64,000 nucleotides of DNA, from positions 1 to 64,000 of the forward strand of contig NIVC01000826.1 in NCBI GenBank assembly GCA_002269645.1, given 5' to 3'. The notes under the pieces are model-generated. The model ran no database searches. It had not been told where the DNA came from and was given only the letters and a program-made list of their open reading frames with translations. Shown piece after piece: positions 10,807-62,679 of the stretch. The position numbers were made by a program, and so were the translations under genes. Each line of letters starts with the position of its first letter. The first letter of the stretch is position 1. This DNA is from Macrostomum lignano. Its lineage: Eukaryota.

Positions 10807-12279
10807 TTACAATGGTGCGTCCCGAACAATCGTGCCATCAGCTTTAGCAATTGACATATATTCCTCTAGAAACAATACGTGGGCGTCAAGTGCCTGATTA
10901 CCGGTTTTATTAATCTCTAACATATAATTAAGTCCAATATTGGCTACGTTTTCTTTCTGTGCCGTTAGATCATAAACAACCACTGGATGAATGTTTAGAA
11001 ACTCTGTGGGTGTATACTGAGGGACGGCATATGCTTCATTTTTGGCATAATCTTGATAATATTTTATAAAATCATTAACATTATTATTTGCTATATTTAA
11101 ATTTAGGGGGTCTTTAACCGGATAATATTGATCATCAACCTGCAGGCGGATATTCTGAACATTAAACTCGTTAATTGCAGCAACTGCGTTGTCTGTTGCG
11201 GTAGCTGCTTGTGCTGCTATGTCACCCGATTGAAGCCAATATAAATCCCCATTTGCTCTTTTACTCCTTCTATTTGTTATCTTAAACCAAACAAAAATAT
11301 ATCTCACCCGACGTTTTGATGTCAGTATTTGCCACTGGAATGAATCCTGGTTATTATTAATGGTTCGCATAAAATGTCGACGATTCAAATAAAATATTTC
11401 CTGATCATGCGTTAACTGATTATCGATGTGTTTTAAAAGTGGGGCTGTTACCTCAATAGTTGGTACGACTAATTGAATTGAATCTATACGAACTGCTATA
11501 TCGGTTGAAATTGAGGTTCCATAAAGTATCCTAGGCTGATATCCACCAGATATTTGCAACTGTATCCCAAATTTTAATCCTTTCCATACCCGATTTGGTG
11601 AGAAAAACCCAAATAGTGGAAAGATTGAAAAGTCCTGCTCATATGCTGTTGCTGTGGTTAAAACCGCGACTGGGAATTTATTATGACGATCTATAAAACC
11701 AGTATTAATATCTTTTGTATTAGTCATAGTGGTTACAACTGGAACTATGTTTGTATTAAGGTAAACAATTAGCGCTGCAGTATCTGCACCGGCTGCGTTT
11801 TGTACATTAGGTAAAACTACTGCTTGCCCGTTACCTTTATCCGGCATCCACCCAACATTATCACCAACTTGTTTTGATAAATAAGTATAATTTAAATGTT
11901 TCAAAACTCCATTAATCTCTGCGGGGTTTGATGATGTCTCAACCTCAGCACCATTAACAGTTAGTTGAGCTTGGGAAAAACATTTATAAAACCAATCATT
12001 TTCTATTATTATTCCGGATCGATCTGCGATATCTCCGGCTGCAAGAGCAGTTCCATCATTTCTAGTATACAACCATCTAACGCGGAAAAACGCATTTTTC
12101 ATATCCAATATAGTGTTGGTTGCGCCGATGTCAAAAGTTACCGTTCCAGTAGTAAAGTTATTTGAATTATCACTTGTTGGTAGGGTATAATTTAAATCTT
12201 TTGCTCTGACCTCATTAATATACTGTCGGTGCTTTTTGAAATGAAATTTATCACTCCACATAGTTTTTGTTTCAGCCAT
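10807..12279 (-). CDS. Major capsid protein (double jelly roll)
   Basis: 490-aa intact beta-rich ORF (CFSQAQLTVNGAEVE; NIRLQVDDQYYP; VVYDLT) adjacent to the ATPase and penton. Confidence 0.85.
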   Translation of the reverse strand: MAETKTMWSDKFHFKKHRQYINEVRAKDLNYTLPTSDNSNNFTTGTVTFDIGATNTILDMKNAFFRVRWLYTRNDGTALAAGDIADRSGIIIENDWFYKCFSQAQLTVNGAEVETSSNPAEINGVLKHLNYTYLSKQVGDNVGWMPDKGNGQAVVLPNVQNAAGADTAALIVYLNTNIVPVVTTMTNTKDINTGFIDRHNKFPVAVLTTATAYEQDFSIFPLFGFFSPNRVWKGLKFGIQLQISGGYQPRILYGTSISTDIAVRIDSIQLVVPTIEVTAPLLKHIDNQLTHDQEIFYLNRRHFMRTINNNQDSFQWQILTSKRRVRYIFVWFKITNRRSKRANGDLYWLQSGDIAAQAATATDNAVAAINEFNVQNIRLQVDDQYYPVKDPLNLNIANNNVNDFIKYYQDYAKNEAYAVPQYTPTEFLNIHPVVVYDLTAQKENVANIGLNYMLEINKTGNQALDAHVLFLEEYMSIAKADGTIVRDAPL

Positions 12280-12313
12280 TTTTTTAAGTTAAAAAAGTTT
12301 TTTATGTTAAAAA

Positions 12314-12983
12314 ATGAGTCAATTTATGGACGTTGATGGAGAGTTAGCGATTTATAAAGAGAAGCAAAGATATTCTGATTTTGTTAGAAATTTACAAAAA
12401 AGAAAGTTAGGATACAATTAGCGGGTGAAAGATTTGCTGCTCCTTTTGTTAATCCTATTACTGGGAAAATAGTGAACTAGAAAAAACAGATAAAGATCTT
12501 CTGGAAAAAATTGCTAAAAATACGGAGCCAAAAGAGGATGAAATTTTGGATGAGCCGCCTGCTTATGATGTTGATCAAGCACAATTGAGAATTGCAGAGA
12601 TTAGACGTGCAGAGCGGGGCGATCGGGAACAATATCCAAGAGTACCAGCTAGTATTGCTGCGACAGATTTAGGTAATAATAATTATCGAATTGGTGGAGT
12701 TGATAAAAATCGAAATGAACTATATAGAGAATTGGGTGGAGCATATAATATTGTTATGAACCCTAGGGTAAAGTTTAACCCTGATTTATATACTAGGGAT
12801 GAATTAATAAGTGCTAGAATTTTTTATGATGAGTTAGGAGGAGCTGTTAAAAATACCAGCTTGTATAAAAGGATTGTTAATTCTATAAATAACAAACCAG
12901 CTGTTGGAGAAGGATTTAAAACACCGCGAAAACTTGTTTTAGCTGCTGCGAAAGCTGCTGGACATACTGGAATCGCCCCGTAG
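12314..12983 (+). CDS. Polinton hypothetical protein, probably starting at ATG 12314 with two frameshifts
   Basis: MSQFMDVDGELAIYKEKQR... from 12314 (TTAAAAAATG) links to ORF 12546-12983; C-terminal VGEGF resembles an adenain site. Confidence 0.5.
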
Positions 12984-13035
12984 GGTCGCGAACCAAAGGT
13001 TCGATTAATTAATTGTTAAATTTATTTTTTATAAA

Positions 13036-13638
13036 ATGGATGAAACAAAAATTTGTACTACGTGTAAAATTGAGAAACCGATGACTAAAGAATTTTTTTG
13101 TTGGAGAAATGACACAAAAAAATTTAAAAATCTTTGTCGATCTTGTGAGAAAGTTAAATGTACTATGTGGAGAATAAACAATAAAGATAAATGTAATAAA
13201 TATGCAAAAAATAAATATCGCACTGATGAAAATTTCAAAAATATTAGTCTAATTAGAGCTAAAATAACTTGGGCATTGAGAACTTTTCATGACAAACATT
13301 ATATCTCCTATCTTGGTTGCACAAAAGAATTCTTTTTTGATTGGTTAAATTTCACAAGAAATTATTATGTTCCAAAAAATTATACTGGAAAGTTAGATAT
13401 TGATCATTTCATTCCCGCTTCTTCATTTAATTACAAAGACGATGATCAGATTAAAAAGTCTGAAAATTGGAGAAATAAAAGATACTTAACTAGCGTAGAT
13501 AATAACTATAAAAAAGTTAAACAACCAACAATTGAAGAATTTGCGAAACAATTGGTGCTTTCATGTATTTTTAAGGCTATTAAAAATGAGCAACCGAACG
13601 AAGTTCGCGTTCCTTCGGAACGATCAAATAGTGTTTGA
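13036..13638 (+). CDS. Free-standing HNH endonuclease (giant-virus/EndoVII-like) with N-terminal CxxC-CxxC zinc finger
   Basis: CTTC...CRSC; YLGCTKE; LDIDHFIPASSF...NWRNKRYL...DNNYK (His, Asn, Asn HNH core). Confidence 0.82.
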   Translation: MDETKICTTCKIEKPMTKEFFCWRNDTKKFKNLCRSCEKVKCTMWRINNKDKCNKYAKNKYRTDENFKNISLIRAKITWALRTFHDKHYISYLGCTKEFFFDWLNFTRNYYVPKNYTGKLDIDHFIPASSFNYKDDDQIKKSENWRNKRYLTSVDNNYKKVKQPTIEEFAKQLVLSCIFKAIKNEQPNEVRVPSERSNSV

Positions 13639-15196
13639 AGGAGGATTGTTAGATGTTCAAAAAGGATTAACAAGCTTACCACCAATCTTTACTACTGGTA
13701 AATATACAGGGGAACTACACCTACCATCAATGAACTTCACAGGTTAACCCGTGGCCTGAGTGAGGAAGGCAATGTCCTTGCTAGTCACTATTTGTGGCGA
13801 CATCTCCAAATTGCGTGAAACCCGTCATACAGCTTCAAGTACCACTTCAAGTGAGAAATCTTTTGAAGGAACAGAGGTAACTCCTCTTCCCAAAGGTAAA
13901 AAGCTTGAAGACACGGTGGCAATGCGCAGCCAAGCTCCTAAGTATTTTAAATATAAGGAGAAGGTTCAGAGAGCAGACGGAGATGGGCGGTAATTATCGC
14001 CGCTTAAGGTGTGCTCCAGCCTCATTCGAAAGATTGAGGGTAAACAGCCGGGGACTCGCTTAGATTTGAGATTAAATCCTGATGACACCCCAAAATCTGA
14101 TTCAATTCCAATAAATGGGATTGATTGGTTAGCATACTATCACGACTTAGCATATAGAGATGCTGACAAGAACCCGCCCGAGGAAGCATTAAGATTAAAA
14201 CATGAAGCCGATCAAAAAATGATTCAAGGATTAGATAACTTACAAGGCTTATCGGTAGGTCAAAAATTAACTAGGTGGATGGTTAAAAAGATCTTGCAGT
14301 CTAAAGTTAAATTTGGTTTGGGAATTAATTATAATCAACATGGAAATAATTGTGTTGAGTGTTTACTATTAAGTGGCGGTGGGTTAAGTTCTGATGAGGC
14401 AAAGATTCTTCATAAAGAATATCGAAAACCTAAATTTTATAGAAAAATCATGAACTTCAAAAAGAATGAAATTTGGTATGCTGATTTAATGTCGATGCCG
14501 AACGAAAGAGGATATAAATATATCTTAACCATATTAGATGGTTTTACTCGATACGCGTGGGCTGTTCCTTTGAAATCCAAAAAAGGAGAGGATGTTGCTG
14601 CTGCTTTTAGAAGTCTTGGAGAAAAAAGCGAAAGATTGTGTGTTGACGAAGGAAAAGAATTTTACAATCCTCATATGTATAAATTATATCATTTTGAAAA
14701 AGGACAAGAAAGGAAAAAAGACGCGAATGGGGAGTATATTAATAAAATTTATTCTATTTATGGAGAGAGTAAAAACGCATTAATAGAAAGATTTAATAGA
14801 ACTTTAGGTAAGAAATTATGGTTTCAGTTTAGTCTTAATGGTAACCAAAAATGGGTAAAAATATTACCAGACGTAGTGAAAGATTATAACAATTCATATC
14901 ATTCAGCTATAAAGATGACTCCTCAACAAGCTTATAACAATCCTGAAAAAGTTAAAGTTACTTTTGGAAAATTTGAAAAAAATAAAAAGAAATCTTTTAA
15001 GGTTGGTGATTCTGTTTATATCTATAAATGGAAAGATAAGTTTGAAAAAGGAAGAAAAGGATATTGGAAGATAAGTGAGAAATTTACTATCAGTAAAGTT
15101 TTAAATACCAATCCTACAACCTATATAATTGCTGATAAGGACGGTGAAGAAATATTGGGTTCGTTTTATGAGAACCAACTAATATCAGCGAACTAA
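13586..15196 (+). CDS. PLA2-domain / retroviral-type (rve) integrase fusion; exons 13586-13744 and 14048-15196, split by a group I intron
   Basis: Spliced junction gives GELHLPSMNFTG|PGTRLD...PINGIDWLAYYHDLAY (parvovirus-type PLA2 Ca loop and HD). Integrase DDE: WYADL, CVDEGKEF, LIERFNRTL; C-terminal FKVGDSV...TYIIAD...GSFYENQL. Confidence 0.92.
13745..14047 (+). ncRNA. Group I self-splicing intron (IC1-like), 303 nt, no internal homing endonuclease
   Basis: 5' exon ends in U13744 and intron ends in G14047. P1 CAGGU/GCCUG (13740-44/13754-58) with U.G at the splice site; P3 CAUCUCC/GGAGAUG (13801-07/13979-85); P AAAUUGCGUGAAA; Q AAUGCGCAGC; R GUUCAGAGAGCA; S AAGGUGUGCUC; P7 GAGCA/UGCUC; P8 GGCGGU/AUCGCC; P9 CCUCA...GAAA...UGAGG. 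Confidence 0.92.
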
Positions 15197-15206
15197 GTTC
15201 GAACAA

Positions 15207-15431
15207 TTACTTAAGACAACATGGTAGTAAATTTTTTATTACAAACAAAAACAATATTATTACTATAATTGTTACTAATATTATTATTGACATTTGTTCA
15301 ACTGTTATCAAACTTAAATTTTCATTAAGTTCATTAATTGGAACATTTCCGATGTAGGAATAGTTTACCTTCATTTTTTTATATATATTTTTCACAATAA
15401 ATGTCGTTTCTGTTATAGAATAATAGTTCAT
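15207..15431 (-). CDS. Small single-pass membrane protein (74 aa)
   Basis: Hydrophobic IIILVTIIVIILFLFVI; TTAAAAAATG start. Confidence 0.55.
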   Translation of the reverse strand: MNYYSITETTFIVKNIYKKMKVNYSYIGNVPINELNENLSLITVEQMSIIILVTIIVIILFLFVIKNLLPCCLK

Positions 15432-15447
15432 TTTTTAAATATTTTTT

Positions 15448-15762
15448 TCACATAAAAATTTCACTTTCATTCTCTGAATCACTGGTTTCATATGAACTAT
15501 TTGTTGATTCGGAATCTGTTGATCTAACCTCCCAATCATCCGAATTTAAATAATCTCCAAGTTGAAATATTAACTCACCCTCTTGTTCTAAATCATACAT
15601 CTCATCTAGCTCTAATGGATAAAGTTTTAGGTCGTGCTTGTCGTCATATTTTAAATAAACTTCATCAATTATTCCATTCAAAATATGTTGTTTTATTATC
15701 TCTGCATTTTTAGCAACAGTCTCAAAAGTATCACTAACAGAAAAGGTGTAAACTCGGTTCAT
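15448..15762 (-). CDS. Acidic hypothetical protein (104 aa), last ORF before the terminus
   Basis: Intact ORF, TATAAAAAATG start. Confidence 0.6.
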   Translation of the reverse strand: MNRVYTFSVSDTFETVAKNAEIIKQHILNGIIDEVYLKYDDKHDLKLYPLELDEMYDLEQEGELIFQLGDYLNSDDWEVRSTDSESTNSSYETSDSENESEIFM

Positions 15763-15852
15763 TTTTTATAACAGAAAAAGACCCTTAGCGCCTGCGGCGC
15801 GTGCGACGGGTTCTAGAAAGTTTGTGTGTGTTGGAGAGAGTTGGAAGCGTTG

Positions 15853-16090
15853 ACGATACAAAATACCCAGCAAACCAAAGCGAACGACGAGAGCGTGTTC
15901 TCACCATTCAAAAAGAATTAATCGTTGTAAGTGTGAAATGGCCTGTTTGACCGAAATGAAGCGAGGATGAGCGAAGCGAGTTGAGCGAAGTGAAGACGAG
16001 CGAAAATGAAGGGAAACAGGCCATTTCACACTGATAAAGGGTTAAATTGTTTGCAATGGTGAGAATGGTTTGCTGGGTATTTTGTATCGT
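15853..16090. repeat. Subterminal nested inverted repeat (long hairpin) in the Polinton right end
   Basis: Perfect arms 15853-15877/16066-16090 (25 bp), 15898-15908/16055-16065 (11 bp) and 15930-15948/16014-16032 (19 bp); purine-rich loop with GAGCGAAG repeats. Confidence 0.9.
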
Positions 16091-16539
16091 ATATACTCAG
16101 TATCAAAAAAAACTTTTATGAATTTTCTTATATTAAATAATACATTAATTTAACTTTAACGATATAAAATGTTTCTTAAGCCTTATAATTTTTAGTAACA
16201 TAATATTAGTAATAAATAATTACTAAAGTTTATCTAGATTGATGTAAATTATAAAAATTTTACCTTATACTTATATTTTTTATATTAGTTATTAAAATAA
16301 ATACCAGAAATATACTTTTTTACACATATAGAAGTCTATTAATATCTTTAACTGTTGATCTTTTGGTAAGCTAATTTTTGTTTTATTGTTTTGTATATGA
16401 TAAGCTTAACTATTCTAGCAACAAGTTAGTTGACAAATATTTTTTGTTTGATTGTTAAACTTAGAACACTTAATGGTCAGTATTTTTCTAGTGTAATTTT
16501 CTTAACTTAAGTATTTCTACATTTTTCATGATTCTCAGT

Positions 16540-19528
16540 ATGAGTGAGTTGCAATGGGTTCTTGACACAGAATTTGCCCCAACTTTGCATGAAATTACCA
16601 TCTTAGTGGATGAATGCAACTCAATTATAACAAGTGCAACAGGAAAATTTATACTTGGTGGCAATGAGTAAGTCTTACTTTTAGCTATTCAAAAAAGCCT
16701 GAATAAGAACCAATGATTTCACATTTTCAACAATGCCTATTTGTGCAATTCAAACTTTAGCTTAAAGCTCAATGGACTCAAAGCAATGGTGACCATGAAC
16801 TCAGATGAAATCACTGAAGCTGTAAGTGTTATTGGTCATTGGAATTTGAGCATCAGGATAATGCATTCATAATGCAGTTTTGTCCTTTCAATCTATAGGA
16901 CATCAGTGTTGAGTGCCCCAACAAGCAGACCTACAGGACAGTCATTGCTGATGGCTGTAGCTACAGAATGCAGCAGGTAATCCTTATGCTAAATAAATGC
17001 CGTTTGCATGATATTCTTATTTTTTAAAAAAAGCAGAGCAGTTTGGCGCTAAATGCTTCCGACTCTCACGCCACAAACCCCTGGTTTGATTCGGTGTGCA
17101 GCCTGGCTGGAGTGTAACTGTACATCTCTGACGATTAGAACCCTGTGCAGGCGTGTGTATGAGTGCTGTGCATGCGTACAGTATTGCTGCGCTTGTACCT
17201 GCTCAGGTGTCAGCTGGAATGGGCAGAATTGACTCACCTTAATAGCCCCACAGCACTTCTGTGAATAGATTGATCGTTCATATTACTATCCAGGGGGTTG
17301 CAGCCTAGTGGGGGGGGGTTGTAGCCTAGTGGGGGTTGTAGCCTAGTGGGGACCGGGGTTGTAGCCTAGTGGGGGTTGTAGCCTAGTGGGGGTTGTAGCC
17401 TAGTGGGGGTTGTAGCCTAGTGGGGGACCGGGGTTGTAGCCTAGTGGGGGTTGTAGCCTAGTGGGGGTTGTAGCCTAGTGGGGGTTGTAGCCTAGTGAGG
17501 GGTTGTAGCCTAGTGGGGGTTGTAGCCAGTGGTTAAGAGCGTCGGACTCACGACTTGAAGGTCGTAGGTTCGATTCCCGATCCCGCTGGAACAATTTGTG
17601 TCCTTGAGCAAGGCACTTAACTCTGCATTGCTTCAGTTCAGCCAGCTGTAAAATGGGTGCCAGCATTAGCTGGGGTAATTGAGGGTGTGTGGCGACCCCC
17701 CAGTCCTTGGACTGAAAAGTCGTACAGCCTTCAGATGCGCCGCGCAATAGCTGCGCCTGCGGCTGAGCTGTCGGTTGCACATCTGGCCATTAGGGCAGGT
17801 GTAATCAGTTATTATTATTACTATACAAGGCTCTCAGCAAAGATTTCATCAAACTGGTTGGTTAGATCAACAAATCTTAAATGCATGACTCATGGTTTTC
17901 TAATGCACGTTACGCAAGCACCAGTGGCATTGCTTCTCCCTGTTAGTTAATATGATCAGCCATTGTTTAAACCCCAACCAATTATTTTAGCTGGTAAACT
18001 GCTGCAACGCTCTGCAGGCGGTTCGCCTGTCAGTTCAAGATGCCATTGAGTTTGGCTTTGCAAGTTCCGAGCCGAGGCCTACTATCGCGGTGAGTTCTGC
18101 TCTGCCTCTGTTCCAGTTTCGGCGTCAGTTCATGGTTTTAAACATCATATTTTCACTTTTTTGCCGCAGTCACTGGGTCGAATATTTGAGCTGCTCAAGC
18201 AGGCCAGGGATCATATTGTGCTGCCGCAGAAACGCACAGTTGAGGATCTGGTCCGCAGCACTACTAGGGTGAGTGTGATGTGTGCGTGAGTGTGTCTGTT
18301 TGTTGGAATTTTACAACTCTGAGTTCTGTAAATCAGAGTGTTTAGAATGAACTCAGTTAGCTTAGAAATCCAGTATGTTTTATATGCTGGATCTGATTGT
18401 TTAGAATGCCAGAGTGCTTGGAATCAGAGTGCTTAGAATCAGAGTGCTTAGAGTTAGAGGGCTTAGAATCAGAGTTCTTAGAATCAGAGTGCTTAGAATC
18501 AGAGTGCTTAGAACCAGAGTGCTTAGAGTTAGAGGGCTTAGAATCAGAGTTCTTAGAATCAGAGTGCTTAGAGTTAGAGGGCTTAGAATCAGAGTGCTTA
18601 GAATCAGAGTGCTTAGAATCAGAGTGCTTAGAGTTAGAGGGCTTAGAATCAGAGTTCTTAGAATCAGAGTGCTTAGAGTTAGAGGGCTTAGAATCAGAGT
18701 GCTTAGAATCAGAGTGCTTAGAATCAGAGTGCTTAGAGTTAGAGTGCTTAGAATCAGAGTGGTTAGAATCAGAGTGGTTAGAGTTAGAGGGCTTAGAATC
18801 AGAGTGCTTAGAGTTAGAGTGCTTAGAATCAGAGTGGTTAGAATCAGAGTGGTTAGAGTTAGAGTGCTTAGAATCAGAGTGCTTAGAATCAGAGTGCTTA
18901 GAGTTAGAGGGCTTAGAATCAGAGTGCTTAGAATCAGAGTGGTTAGAGTTAGAGGGTTTAGAATCAGAGTGCTTAGAGTTAGGGGGCTTAGAATCAGAGT
19001 GCTTAGAATCAGAGTGCTTAGAGTTAGAGGGCTTAGAATCAGAGTGCTTAGAGTTAGGGGGCTTAGAATCAGAGTGCTTAGAGTTAGGGGGCTTAGAATC
19101 AGAGTGCTTAGAAACAGAGTGCTTAGAATCAGAGTGGTTAGAATCAAAGTGGTTAGAGTTAGAGGGCTTAGAATCGAAATTCACAAGAGTTCAGAATCAG
19201 AGTGCCTCTATAAAAGTACCTACAGCTCAACTATGCTTAGCATCCTTCATCACACCCGGCACCCCAGGAGCTGTTCCAGCCTCAGTTGCCCAACGACATC
19301 TGCCTGTCGCTATACGTCAGCGGGCAGAAGCTGATCCTGGCGGTGTACTTCTTGCACCACAACCAGCTGGCAGCGCCTCACCCTCATGCGCACGAAATTG
19401 CCTACAGGCTGAACATCCAGGCTGTGGTCCCCTGGCTGGGCAAAGTTCTCCAGTGCCTGTCTATGGCCATGCTAAGGACTTCTCAGCTCATTGAGAAGCT
19501 CAACAGAATTTGCTACACATTGGGATGA
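16540..19528 (+). CDS. rogdi: Rogdi homologue (multi-exon)
   Basis: GT-AG exons 16540-16667, 16761-16821, 16899-16976, 17991-18089, 18170-18268, 19268-19528 give ELQWVLDTE...; YRMQQ; LLKQARDHIVLPQKRT; LFQPQLPNDICLSLYVSGQKLILAVY; VVPWLGKVL, collinear with the ROGDI sequence as recalled. The 5' end is uncertain (an AG precedes 16539). Confidence 0.8.
17293..17520 (+). repeat. 16-17-bp tandem repeat GGGGTTGTAGCCTAGT (amplified SINE 5' end)
   Basis: About a dozen copies running directly into the SINE head. Confidence 0.85.
17516..17720 (+). mobile_element. tRNA-derived CORE-type SINE in a rogdi intron
   Basis: A-box GTAGCCAGTGG, B-box GGTTCGATTCC (17567-77), then GTGTCCTTGAGCAAGGCACTTAAC...CAGCTGTAAAATGGG resembling the MIR/CORE domain. 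Confidence 0.75.
18401..19175. repeat. 15-bp intronic satellite (TTAGAATCAGAGTGC / TTAGAGTTAGAGGGC)
   Basis: About 50 near-identical units in the last rogdi intron. Confidence 0.95.
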
Positions 19529-20689: not shown

Positions 20690-42457
<21,768 letters not shown>

Positions 42458-59433: not shown

Positions 59434-60625
59434 ATGAATCGTGCAGTATATTTACACGAAATAGAATATAAATTCGAAATTCGAATGAATCGTGTAGTAT
59501 ATTTACACGAAATAGAATATAAATTCGAAATTCGAATGAATCGTGTAGTATATTTACACGAAATAGAATATAAATTCGAAAGTCGAATGAATCGTGCAGT
59601 ATATTTACACGAAATAGAATATAAATTCGAAAGTCGAATGAATCGTGCAGTATATTTACACGAAATAGAATATAAATTCGAAAGTCGAATGAATCGTGCA
59701 GTATATTTACACGAAATAGAATATAAATTCGAAAGTCGAATGAATCGTGCAGTATATTTACACGAAATAGAATATAAATTCGAAAGTCGAATGAATCGTG
59801 CAGTATATTTACACGAAATAGAATATAAATTCGAAAGTCGAATGAATCGTGCAGTATATTTACACGAAATAGAATATAAATTCGAAAGTCGAATGAATCG
59901 TGCAGTATATTTACACGAAATAGAATATAAATTCGAAAGTCGAATGAATCGTGCAGTATATTTACACGAAATAGAATATAAATTCGAAAGTCGAATGAAT
60001 CGTGTAGTATATTTACACGAAATAGAATATAAATTCGAAAGTCGAATGAATCGTGCAGTATATTTACACGAAATAGAATATAAATTCGAAAGTCGAATGA
60101 ATCGTGCAGTATATTTACACGAAATAGAATATAAATTCGAAAGTCGAATGAATCGTGCAGTATATTTACACGAAATAGAATATAAATTCGAAAGTCGAAT
60201 GAATCGTGCAGTATATTTACACGAAATAGAATATAAATTCGAAAGTCGAATGAATCGTGCAGTATATTTACACGAAATAGAATATAAATTCGAAAGTCGA
60301 ATGAATCGTGCAGTATATTTACACGAAATAGAATATAAATTCGAAAGTCGAATGAATCGTGCAGTATATTTACACGAAATAGAATATAAATTCGAAAGTC
60401 GAATGATTCGTGCAGTATATTTACACGAAATAGAATATAAATTCGAAAGTCGAATGAATCGTGTAGTATATTTACACGAAATAGAATATAAATTCGAAAG
60501 TCGAATGAATCGTGTAGTATATTTACACGAAATAGAATATAAATTCGAAAGTCGAATGAATCGTGTAGTATATTTACACGAAATAGAATATAAATTCGAA
60601 AGTCGAATGAATCGTGTAGTATATT
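59434..60625. repeat. 51-bp satellite, about 23 copies
   Basis: ATGAATCGTGCAGTATATTTACACGAAATAGAATATAAATTCGAAAGTCGA units. Confidence 0.97.
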
Positions 60626-62679
60626 GTGACGAATAAATTGGCGGGAAGACGGTTTGTGTAGCGGTTAATTGGATAGTTCACGATTTAGATTTAGCAGATC
60701 GGCAAGCCGCTTTCACCCTTAGCGTTACTTTGAATCGTTATGCCTTGCAAAGATCGGGATTCAGTTGATTGGTTGGTGGGTTGGTGAATTGTAAAATTGT
60801 AGAACACTGTCACACTAAAATATAAAATTCTGCTACATGTATACGTACCTGTGCACGCGTATATTCCATTTATTTTCGACACCGAAAATGTTTTAAATTC
60901 ATGCATTTTTCAGCTCCAAGCAGAAAGAGGGGACAATTAAGATTATCAAAGGTCAAGATTCAAGTTTTCTGCTTTTTTGAGGATCTTAGAAATTAAAATT
61001 TCAAAATTAAAATAGCCTATAGCCGACCTCGGATAATTTCCAATCTTCCCATATAAGTTTCAACGCTGAGTTGCCACTATTCAAGGAGGAGTTGTCGTAA
61101 TGACAGACAAACAACACGTGAACTTTAGTATATGTAGAGAAGAAGAGATAGAAAGATAGAAGAGAAGACTCAAATTTAGAAACTTTTAAGGTAAGCCTAA
61201 GACATTCTCCGTAGTGAGTTTAGGGTGGGTGCAAAATTTGGTGTAATTTGGTTGAGCAGGTTGGAGTCCATAGCGATCAAAATTGTACACAGACAGAGTT
61301 TTGATTTTTATATGTAGAGAAGAGATATAAGACCAGAATCGTAGATTATGGATTAATTGGAATCATTAACGACGTTAAACTTGAGCACAGTAATTAAAAG
61401 CAAAAAAATCTGTCAAATAATATCAAATGCATGACTGAATACAAATTTCGAAGCAACCCAGCAAATCAAGTTATTCATAAAGCCAATGAGCTGAGGCGTG
61501 CCATTATACTGTTTTTTTCAGGCACAGGACAGGTGCCATTGTACGTAGAATAAGAAATAAAAGAATCCTAATTTTCTGAACGAAACGCTTTATGAATATC
61601 AATAGAGCTATAAAGAAAGGTACAGCATATTAAAATATGAACATTAGATCTGCCTCCTTCTGTAACATCAAAAGCAACAACAATTTTTGTGCTGAAAAAA
61701 ATGAGAACTTCCTATCCACTAGTCTATTTTTCTGCTAAAAGTGGCTGTGACGTTGTCAGTTTAAGGTGGTCCCGAAAAGGGCCGTTGGACTGCTGTTTCT
61801 CTATAGTTTCAACCCTTCAGTTTCACCGTTTCAACTAAACTTTTCTATTTGTTTATTGCGACGTTTACTTGTAGTAGTGCCCAACGATTTTGTGGCAATT
61901 TCTAATTCACTGTATATTTTACTATCCTCTCTCGCGACCGTATAAAATTGGCACGATCGATAATTTCAAGTTCTCTCGCCAGCCAATGAAAACTCTCCGT
62001 GTTTTGCGCTTCCCCCTCTGCGCTCCTTTATTAAACCCCCCGCCTGGCGGCAGGCACTCCTCACTCCCTGCTCGTCCCTGTTCTTGTGTTCTGTGTTCTC
62101 TCTCCTTAGGCTTGCCTCCGTCCCGTCTGGCTTGCCTAGCCTTGTCTAGCCTTGTTTTCCTTCTCTCTGTCTGGCTGCCTCGAGCCTCCTTACCTCACGC
62201 CACGGCTGACGCCAACTTCGCCACTGCTCATCCGCCTGCCTACTACGTCTCACTGCCTTCACTGTACTCATTGCCATTGATCATCACGTTACGTCGCCAT
62301 TATATCACTCGTCTGTCGCTTGAACTCACATCCAATTTACCTTAAAAGAAACCATTGTTGCAGCCGCCAGTGCCCAGAAAGCAATAGTTTGTTATTTGCC
62401 AGTAACAACCAAACTTACTATTTACATTGATAATAAAAACGACTACGGCAGTTCCCTGCCCTTATTGCCAAGTGCTCCGCTACACCATCCACTTCGCCTA
62501 AGTTGACTTCAACTTATTTTGGGACTAAAACGGCCCTTTTAAGGGTCACGGCCAACATCAAATAACGTGACAGTGGCCTTCAAAACATTTTCCATAGCTT
62601 TCTAGTGTTGCGTCCTTCTACTTTAGTAGTCCTTGACTCAAATATTTTGAATACCGAATTCTAACCTCTGTCAGGTTTG

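Follow-up and report, generated by a model that had tools for sequence, protein, structure and literature searches.

Exchange of putative HNH-type nucleases and ORF-less group I introns at one site in Polintons of Macrostomum lignano: a probable homing-type locus with loosely coupled parts

In phage collaborative homing, a free-standing endonuclease gene adjoins an ORF-less intron, as described for F-CphI and psbA of cyanophage S-PM2, for T3/T7-like phages, and for the terminase intron of ICP1 (PMC10448857, PMC2988022, and PMC11296320, in the portions available). A similar arrangement occurs in a 64,000-nt stretch of Macrostomum lignano DNA (the window, i.e., the whole stretch analysed, contig NIVC01000826.1, positions 1 to 64,000, to which all coordinates refer). 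The initial annotation of this DNA proposed that a nuclease encoded next to an intron-split PLA2 gene cuts intron-less alleles, and that nuclease and intron spread together by co-conversion. Do the two in fact travel as a unit, and if not, what accounts for their standing side by side? The locus lies in an integrated Polinton, and its features are as follows.

1..16400, no strand: integrated Polinton/Maverick element (adintovirus-like), with Pfam matches to DNA_pol_B_2, Pox_A32 ATPase, and rve
10807..12279, minus strand: 490-aa gene, taken as the major capsid gene from its size and context; left backbone marker
12314..12983, plus strand: conserved 221-223-aa gene upstream of the slot, with no function assigned; in pieces in the window copy
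12900..14100, no strand: exchange (gene-conversion-like) tract, with graded shoulders to ~12500 and ~14400
13008..13035, plus strand: A/T-rich leader, a motif common to the HNH and PD-(D/E)xK slot genes
13036..13638, plus strand: free-standing nuclease ORF of 200 aa, clade H4, in an exchangeable slot; an open frame that overlaps the ATG at 13586
13054..13146, plus strand: C4 zinc-finger part (C7, C10, C34, C37), invariant in 10 representative alleles
13393..13512, plus strand: predicted bba-metal nuclease unit (D123, H124, N147, N156), from alignment and model
13586..13744, plus strand: exon 1 of the PLA2-integrase gene, with ATG at 13586 and pN < pS
13745..14047, plus strand: ORF-less group I intron, type A, 303 nt, from Rfam and natural intron-less copies
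14048..15196, plus strand: exon 2, the remainder of the PLA2-like domain fused to an rve integrase (Pfam)

The hallmarks of Polinton/Maverick elements, pPolB, the rve integrase, and the packaging ATPase, were all found by Pfam in the window element, with pPolB split over several separate ORFs in this copy. The right end (~16400) is approximate, and a check for terminal inverted repeats in this element, whose left end is off the contig, beyond the contig start, found no repeat between 1-1500 and 15200-17000. The 490-aa gene has no Pfam match, and the capsid and protease labels used here are our assumption, from gene order and recall. The first 16.4 kb, the Polinton part, is A/T-rich DNA, and a GC step follows at ~17 kb, just past the Polinton. 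The flanking host DNA contains an exon with a weak match to Rogdi at 16540, besides Spond_N, TSP1_spondin, and Kunitz exons; the nearby host genes are of animal type. The nearest Atlas clusters are from animals as well (score 0.89, no more than a lead), and we regard the host as an animal. The leader motif at 13008..13035 precedes both kinds of slot gene, and in a sister family it directly precedes the PLA2 gene. The nuclease thus appears to have been inserted between the PLA2 gene and its leader, a position referred to herein as the slot.

The nuclease had been annotated as an intact 200-aa zinc-finger/HNH ORF that ends at 13638, overlaps the gene start at 13586, and lies about 110 nt from the insertion site. 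The open frame was recovered at these positions, and 106 nt separate its stop from the 5' splice site, a spacing that is identical in 57 of 63 intact HNH copies in the genome. The zinc finger and the nuclease fold were likewise supported, while the HNH label fell short of the Pfam cut-off: the window protein is without any Pfam match, and PF01844 (HNH) gave weak matches in only three of 105 aligned relatives (best E 0.0011). The alignment of 105 sequences, together with a predicted model (pLDDT 94.3), reveals a C4 finger, then a long middle region of helices, and then a bba unit that carries D123-H124...N147...N156. These four residues are invariant or at least 90% conserved among the aligned relatives, and are invariant in 10 representatives of the 42 distinct open alleles. 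The finger matches residues 62-106 of Hpy99I (Z 5.5, rmsd 2.3, 42 aligned), and among viral folds the best match (E 1.4e-9) is to an endonuclease that Bodo saltans virus encodes in an intron. Against solved structures, Foldseek returned no match at E <=0.001; the fold neighbours among these structures are HNH domains, but weak ones, with middling Z values in a wide search. A bba fold with a catalytic D/H and two N thus points to a bba-metal (HNH-type) endonuclease, as judged from the model. The DHHRN (Endo VII-type, F-CphI) class, defined in the available text of PMC6083498 by DHDH flanked by CxxC pairs within the catalytic domain, was considered and rejected; the window motif is D-H-x-I-P, and cysteines occur only in the N-terminal finger. 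Purifying selection on the HNH ORF is indicated by a dN/dS ratio of 0.49 across 47 distinct open ORFs, with 0.41 for the bba part; only copies with an open frame (63 of the 99 with HNH) entered the calculation.

The split gene, the intron, and the proposed splice junction were all borne out. A PLA2-like domain (PF08398, E 5.6e-8, on the natural intron-less copy L026) is fused in frame to the rve integrase, and the insertion site falls inside a G-x-G motif of this domain, which we take to be the PLA2 calcium loop. The intron matches RF00028 at 13735-14038 with 65.7 bits (gathering score 50, E 2e-14), the sole Rfam match in the window, and contains one 73-codon frame and no nuclease, consistent with its annotation as ORF-less. 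Its borders are set by three natural intron-less copies (L026, L117, and L134), the junction of which is identical to that proposed; precise insertion is also supported by 15 uninterrupted sister-family loci. The following helices were assigned.

13740-44/13754-58, plus strand: P1, with U.G at the 5' splice site
13784-88/13794-98, plus strand: P2.1 of intron A
13801-07/13979-85, plus strand: P3 of intron A
13812-17/13923-28, plus strand: P4 of intron A
13971-75/14012-16, plus strand: P7 of intron A
14020-24/14035-39, plus strand: P9 of intron A

Over 88 distinct rows, ~99% of the cells in P1, P3, P4, and P7 are paired, and double (compensatory) changes occur in P3, P4, P5a, P5c, and P7, mainly between type A and 10 sister-family rows; within type A, assigned paired positions are no less variable than the rest (0.044 vs. 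0.039). The pairings assigned for P2, P5, P6a, and P8 turned out to be partly wrong. The window intron ends in G; 82 of 111 type-A copies end in A, with P7 unchanged. Some coral mitochondrial introns end in A, and our literature search found no paper on terminal-A introns. A second intron, type B, is a ~328-nt insertion with the same 5' splice site as intron A, sharing peripheral parts with it and differing in the core. Intron B has no Rfam match; read by eye, its core appears to be group I, and presumably IE-like. In addition, an Rfam search of the own genome scored 28 candidates, all of which are sister-family introns by position.

Splicing is suggested by the exons. Codons of exon 2 upstream of the first internal Met have a pN of 0.02-0.03 against a pS of 0.14-0.25 in terminal-A, terminal-G, and B copies alike. 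Since intron A opens with an in-frame stop, purifying selection on those PLA2 codons is indirect evidence for splicing, an argument blurred by conversion among copies. Contigs of four public runs over 12950-14500 showed no intron-skipping joint; as three of these runs are only guessed to be RNA and none is recorded as such, the absent joint says nothing on splicing or expression.

Copies elsewhere in the genome reveal who occupies the slot and the intron site. Searches found HNH 128 times, fragments included, and for PLA2 scored 150 matches among 502 candidates. After merging, there were 138 copies of family 1 and 16 loci of the sister family. Two of the 138 are truncated upstream, leaving 136 scorable; these are not independent, and some may be duplicate haplotigs. 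Every one of the 136 carries a slot nuclease, HNH in 99 and an Eco47II-like PD-(D/E)xK nuclease (PD), unrelated in fold to HNH, in 37. PD matches PF09553 (E 7e-6 for the intronic form and 0.002 for the free form). It has both slot and leader in common with HNH, and in 16 of 26 open copies its end likewise lies 106 nt upstream of the site; its core has a pS of 0.111 and a pN of 0.029 (13 sequences). An intron is present in 133 copies, type A in 109 and type B in 24. The combinations are HNH with A (79), PD with A (30), HNH with B (17), PD with B (7), and HNH without an intron (3).

Under strict collaborative homing, the reading closest to the initial annotation, the HNH cuts only the uninterrupted junction, the intron protects its carrier, and both move as a unit. 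The 106-nt geometry fits, intron-less alleles are present in both families, and 96 of 99 HNH copies carry an intron. Moreover, some clades have a constant partner: clade H4, that of the window, has intron A in 16 of 16 copies, clade H7 has A in 10 of 10, and clade H11 has B in 13 of 13. However, all 37 PD copies carry an intron too, so that co-occurrence with an intron is not specific to HNH, and 37 of 133 intron-bearing copies have no HNH. When the supposed co-occurrence of HNH and intron was checked across Polinton copies, nuclease family and intron type proved independent (Fisher p=1.0). Clade H5 is found with A (39), B (3), and no intron (1), two copies of clade H2 lack the intron, and H4 is combined with three different A subtypes. 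The H11-B link persists in permutations within backbone clusters at three of four thresholds (p 0.0004 at 1%, <0.0002 at 2% and 4%, and 0.14 at 0.5%), while the underpowered independent-pairs test gave five pairs, three in the same direction and none opposite (p 0.25); the same test gave p 1 for H4-A. Linkage over ~110 nt could produce the H11-B link without any drive. Intron B stands beside nucleases other than H11 in 11 of 24 copies, an asymmetry to be expected if the intron lies at the break and the nuclease gene further off.

Strict intron-based protection forbids an open HNH beside an uninterrupted site, unless the allele is non-cutting or sequence-immune. Nonetheless, three of the 99 HNH copies (L026, L117, and L134) break the rule that the nuclease never adjoins such a site, and in L026 and L117, neither of which belongs to clade H4, the HNH frame is open. 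As intron-less targets are rare (3 of 136), the junction alone is unlikely to keep the nuclease under selection. In addition, HNH alleles keep displacing each other where the intron is already present, a turnover not attributable to a junction-only cutter. Membership of strict collaborative homing is therefore not established, and we regard this reading as unlikely.

Displacement of this kind is apparent between elements that are otherwise nearly the same. The 490-aa capsid-type gene is 97-100% identical among young copies. Between the window and eight young copies, the capsid and integrase genes are 97-100% identical, whereas most 100-nt bins over ~12.9-14.1 kb are only 42-95% identical, with shoulders. 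The initial annotation called for gene-conversion tracts around the site, and one was indeed found, at ~12900-14100, between near-identical backbones. The co-conversion it proposed is upheld as local exchange over slot and intron, but not as transfer of a fixed HNH-plus-intron unit. Among 264 pairs with near-identical backbones (capsid distance <1% and integrase distance <2%), the nuclease family is not the same in 91 and the intron class in 86, and slot and intron have been exchanged between backbones that are 98-100% identical. On a backbone tree of 98 rows (those of the 136 copies with both segments), the HNH/PD state needs 16 changes, at least 8 of them forced by starred branches; clade H4 needs 9 (4 forced), H11 needs 7 (5 forced), and intron B needs 13 (7 forced). 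Distances in the HNH slot correlate with those in the backbone at 0.25-0.41, and distances in the 90 nt that directly follow the site at 0.22-0.47, against 0.63-0.86 among backbone parts themselves. Judged against this tree, the nuclease gene appears mobile, with co-conversion of its flanks; a preferred direction, i.e., drive, is what we infer.

Exchange is not unique to this spot. Of 20 copies compared along most of the element, 16 also differ from the window at 6.4-8.4 kb, in lectin/fibre-like genes, and 15 of 20 at 8.8-9.2 kb; the fibre genes are mosaic too. A search for a homing sweep, which would lower diversity at the site, gave a negative result. If anything, diversity is raised: synonymous pS near the site is 0.36 vs. 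0.15-0.2, and 0.25 vs. 0.15, with overlapping intervals, when type-B copies are left out.

A sister family, with ~58% PLA2 identity to that of the window, shows a different arrangement. In all 25 top sister-family hits, the intron at the homologous site contains the PD-(D/E)xK ORF (in 24 of them the locus includes the core). The final two exon codons of every one of these copies are unlike those of the intron-less copies, and in 12 the difference covers a longer tract. Among the 16 sister loci chosen by PLA2 similarity, 15 have an uninterrupted junction, and 14 are without trace of intron or nuclease. In a 37-row downstream tree, a 13-copy intron-plus-nuclease clade is nested among intron-less rows on starred branches, and the intron state requires three changes, two of them forced, with row L201 as a long outlier; such counts do not separate gain from loss. 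Intron-encoded relatives of both nucleases also occur in public sequences. Six of 12 public PD-(D/E)xK relatives end in translated sequence homologous to this intron, as do two of 150 public HNH relatives, the intron-encoded status resting on protein read-through. A full HMMER scan recovered 1369 HNH relatives at E <=0.001; a word-based protein search found none among 28 candidates, and scans of viral contigs with P0006, the sister-family PLA2, and P0161 found no relative. Trees of the two nucleases yielded no root for the free-standing versus the intron-encoded state.

It is also conceivable that the intron spread earlier by its own intron-encoded nuclease and is now near fixed, and that the slot nuclease has some other role, such as processing the genome or attacking the DNA of competitors, helper viruses, or the host, and changes by ordinary modular recombination like the fibre genes. 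The second mosaic region, which has no nuclease, is compatible with this, as is an intron so widespread (133 of 136 copies) beside an HNH still under selection. The remaining 148 of the 150 public HNH relatives show no intron read-through, and a metagenome scan gave 26 loci of distant relatives, of which the 16 scanned against Rfam had no match. Packaging or restriction has moreover been proposed for nucleases of Polinton-like viruses (PLVs) in the part of PMC12220804 available. Against this, the 14 plain intron-less sister loci examined lack a slot nuclease, which hence is no core function in that family. The slot beside the intron site is held by one or the other of two unrelated nucleases, each of which has intron-encoded relatives, and the exon stretch just past that site is decoupled from the backbone. 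Another role for the nuclease thus seems rather improbable. That the mosaic arose in assembly or polishing, as an artefact of numerous near-identical repeats, is hardly credible: many copies do have frameshifts, some loci are mutually identical, and many elements end at contig ends, but the blocks exchanged span 300-600 nt, are unrelated or distant in sequence, and lie within long contigs, many contigs repeat the same combinations, and contigs of the four public runs, one of which may be the assembly's source, share the indel and intron-end variants.

We favor, as the probable though by no means certain explanation, a slot whose homing-type nucleases attack rival copies close to the PLA2 motif, the intron being co-converted in a loose and competitive manner. 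A free-standing homing-type endonuclease would occupy this slot, with the leader on one side and the PLA2-integrase gene on the other. Where related Polinton genomes, replicating or integrated, meet in one cell, the nuclease would nick or cut the rival in or near the conserved PLA2 motif, and repair from the cutter would copy a ~1.2-1.9 kb tract with the resident intron and often the nuclease gene too. The ORF-less intron would ride along and may shield the site. The partnership would be a loose one, in which HNH and PD-(D/E)xK, and introns A and B, take each other's place, and exon polymorphism rather than the intron would probably make some alleles immune. The free-standing nuclease adjoining an ORF-less intron, as annotated, is confirmed by the ORF, the Rfam match, and the 106-nt spacing. 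A homing-type locus is well supported; a fixed two-part unit was an overstatement.

A broader interpretation, which we put forward only tentatively, is that endogenous viruses in the nuclear genome of an animal are engaged in a homing arms race that is still under way. It would comprise more than 150 catalytic group I intron copies in a protein-coding viral gene, and two introns and two nuclease folds that displace one another at one codon. One genome would hold both ends of the proposed route, a free nuclease with an empty intron and a nuclease inside an intron. Furthermore, H11 would cut carriers of intron A, with intron B as its only safe partner, and splicing of most type-A introns would use a terminal A.

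Among known systems, the best reading is that the locus works like phage collaborative, trans, and intronless homing, and like the introns of Bodo saltans virus, insofar as the available portions of the sources describe them. As in phage collaborative homing, the nuclease ORF lies outside and adjoins an ORF-less intron in a conserved motif, and an exchange tract covers both; the nuclease family also occurs inside introns, as the proposed mobile-intron pathway or its alternative, HEG turnover, would need (PMC10448857). Unlike the phage cases, the Polinton is integrated in an animal nuclear genome, the coupling is loose, and one site is contested by two nuclease folds and two introns. The free-standing T4 nucleases Seg and MobE are associated with intronless homing, marker exclusion, and trans homing (PMC2988022, in part). 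They resemble the slot genes in replacing each other at one locus, in distant cutting with co-conversion of flanks, and in that they can mobilise an intron in trans, but here the setting is a eukaryotic endogenous virus, the partners being copies in one genome or co-infecting particles.

Bodo saltans virus has group I introns with HNH/GIY-YIG endonucleases plus ORF-less "offspring" introns, for which interference between related viruses was proposed (PMC5871332, in part). This virus supplies the best fold match to the HNH, and has ORF-less and nuclease-bearing introns side by side as well; it differs in being a protist giant virus, with the introns in RNA polymerase genes and the nucleases inside them. 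Group I introns are also carried by protist PLVs of Rhodomonas, Paulinella, and Desmodesmus, whose integrated elements have RF00028 introns, 309-376 nt long, in a gene close to that of the capsid (PMC12220804). In contrast to the window, these are reported as restricted to a few protist groups and interrupt a short gene that is unannotated, and the available text analyses no homing partner; tables S11-S12 of that paper list them and could bear on novelty. Collaborative homing was suggested for PLV replicase genes (10.64898/2026.10.13.758929, in part), and HNH domains are known within nematode Polinton polymerases (10.1101/2023.08.22.554363, in part). The adintovirus PLA2X gene encodes a parvovirus-like PLA2 domain in animal Polintons, and the portion of that paper available mentions no endonuclease (PMC8502044); the window PLA2, unlike PLA2X, is fused to an integrase and split by a group I intron. 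A literature search, with most subscription journals outside its reach, turned up no animal Polinton reported to carry a group I intron or a homing module. What seems to be new is the animal Polinton host and the two-nuclease, two-intron exchange; the homing arrangement itself is of a known kind.

According to the available parts of two reviews, group I introns of animals are almost confined to mitochondria of non-bilaterians (PMC10964413, PMC8393795); here, in contrast, they are numerous in an animal nuclear assembly and borne by Polintons. The two small, uncharacterised nuclease families, with their natural allele series, are of interest for DNA-recognition studies. With one nuclease both intron-encoded and free-standing at one site, how mobile introns arose, by capture or by turnover, becomes testable in a single genome, which also offers the natural substrates for this question. 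Lastly, exchange of the homing type would imply that Polinton genomes meet, break, and recombine in animal cells, and thus bears on the question of whether Polintons replicate as viruses.

In both Polinton families, a single open reading frame (ORF) joins a phospholipase A2 (PLA2)-like domain to an rve integrase (window 13586-15196), and the intron therefore lies upstream of the integrase. Integrase could be produced without splicing from an internal Met at 14219. In family 1, the family of the window's Polinton, 82 of the 111 copies of the type-A intron, the form present in the window, end in A rather than the canonical G (e.g., loci L015 and L166), while the window's own copy ends in G (nucleotide 14047), as do the sister-family introns. 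The P7 G-binding pair is unaltered in the terminal-A introns of family 1, and exon 2 of the terminal-A copies looks to be still under selection.

An alternative insertion, type B, uses the same 5' splice site:

L016:2210-2543 and 23 further copies, type-B insertion

Types A and B have 5' peripheral and P5-extension sequences in common. The core of type B is unlike that of type A, and an Rfam search of type B returned no match. More than one position is a candidate for its 3' splice site: the homologous one leads to an in-frame stop, and the alternatives alter the conserved G-x-G motif of PLA2. At L135:1434-2600, a type-B intron is accompanied by an unrelated insertion of ~830 nucleotides.

In the slot upstream of the PLA2-integrase gene, some HNH and some Eco47II-like PD-(D/E)xK ORFs of family 1 have their first codons in common. 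HNH alleles of this family look internally mosaic, with the finger from one clade and the middle from another (e.g., L026). Indel polymorphisms of 33-40 nucleotides lie on either side of the HNH ORF (window 12971-13005 and 13589-13625), and occur among the copies of the genome as well as in public runs.

A second region exchanged between Polinton copies, whose ORFs differ in 16/20 copies, and repeat ORFs in the host DNA were also recorded:

Window 6400-8400 and 8800-9200, second exchange region, with discoidin (F5/F8) and repeat-containing fibre-like ORFs
Window 18406-19494, 39335-40684 and 59434-60636, long ORFs built of tandem repeats, host DNA

These tandem-repeat ORFs are probably not genes.

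At L180:1716-2600, a truncated exon 1 and intron 5' end lie immediately upstream of an intron-less PLA2 gene, with a D5-like helicase ORF nearby.

In the sister family (G000; L188-L212 and L172-L187), the intron contains an Eco47II-like PD-(D/E)xK ORF that reads into the core, and intron-less alleles segregate alongside the nuclease-bearing intron. This arrangement is that of a classical mobile intron.
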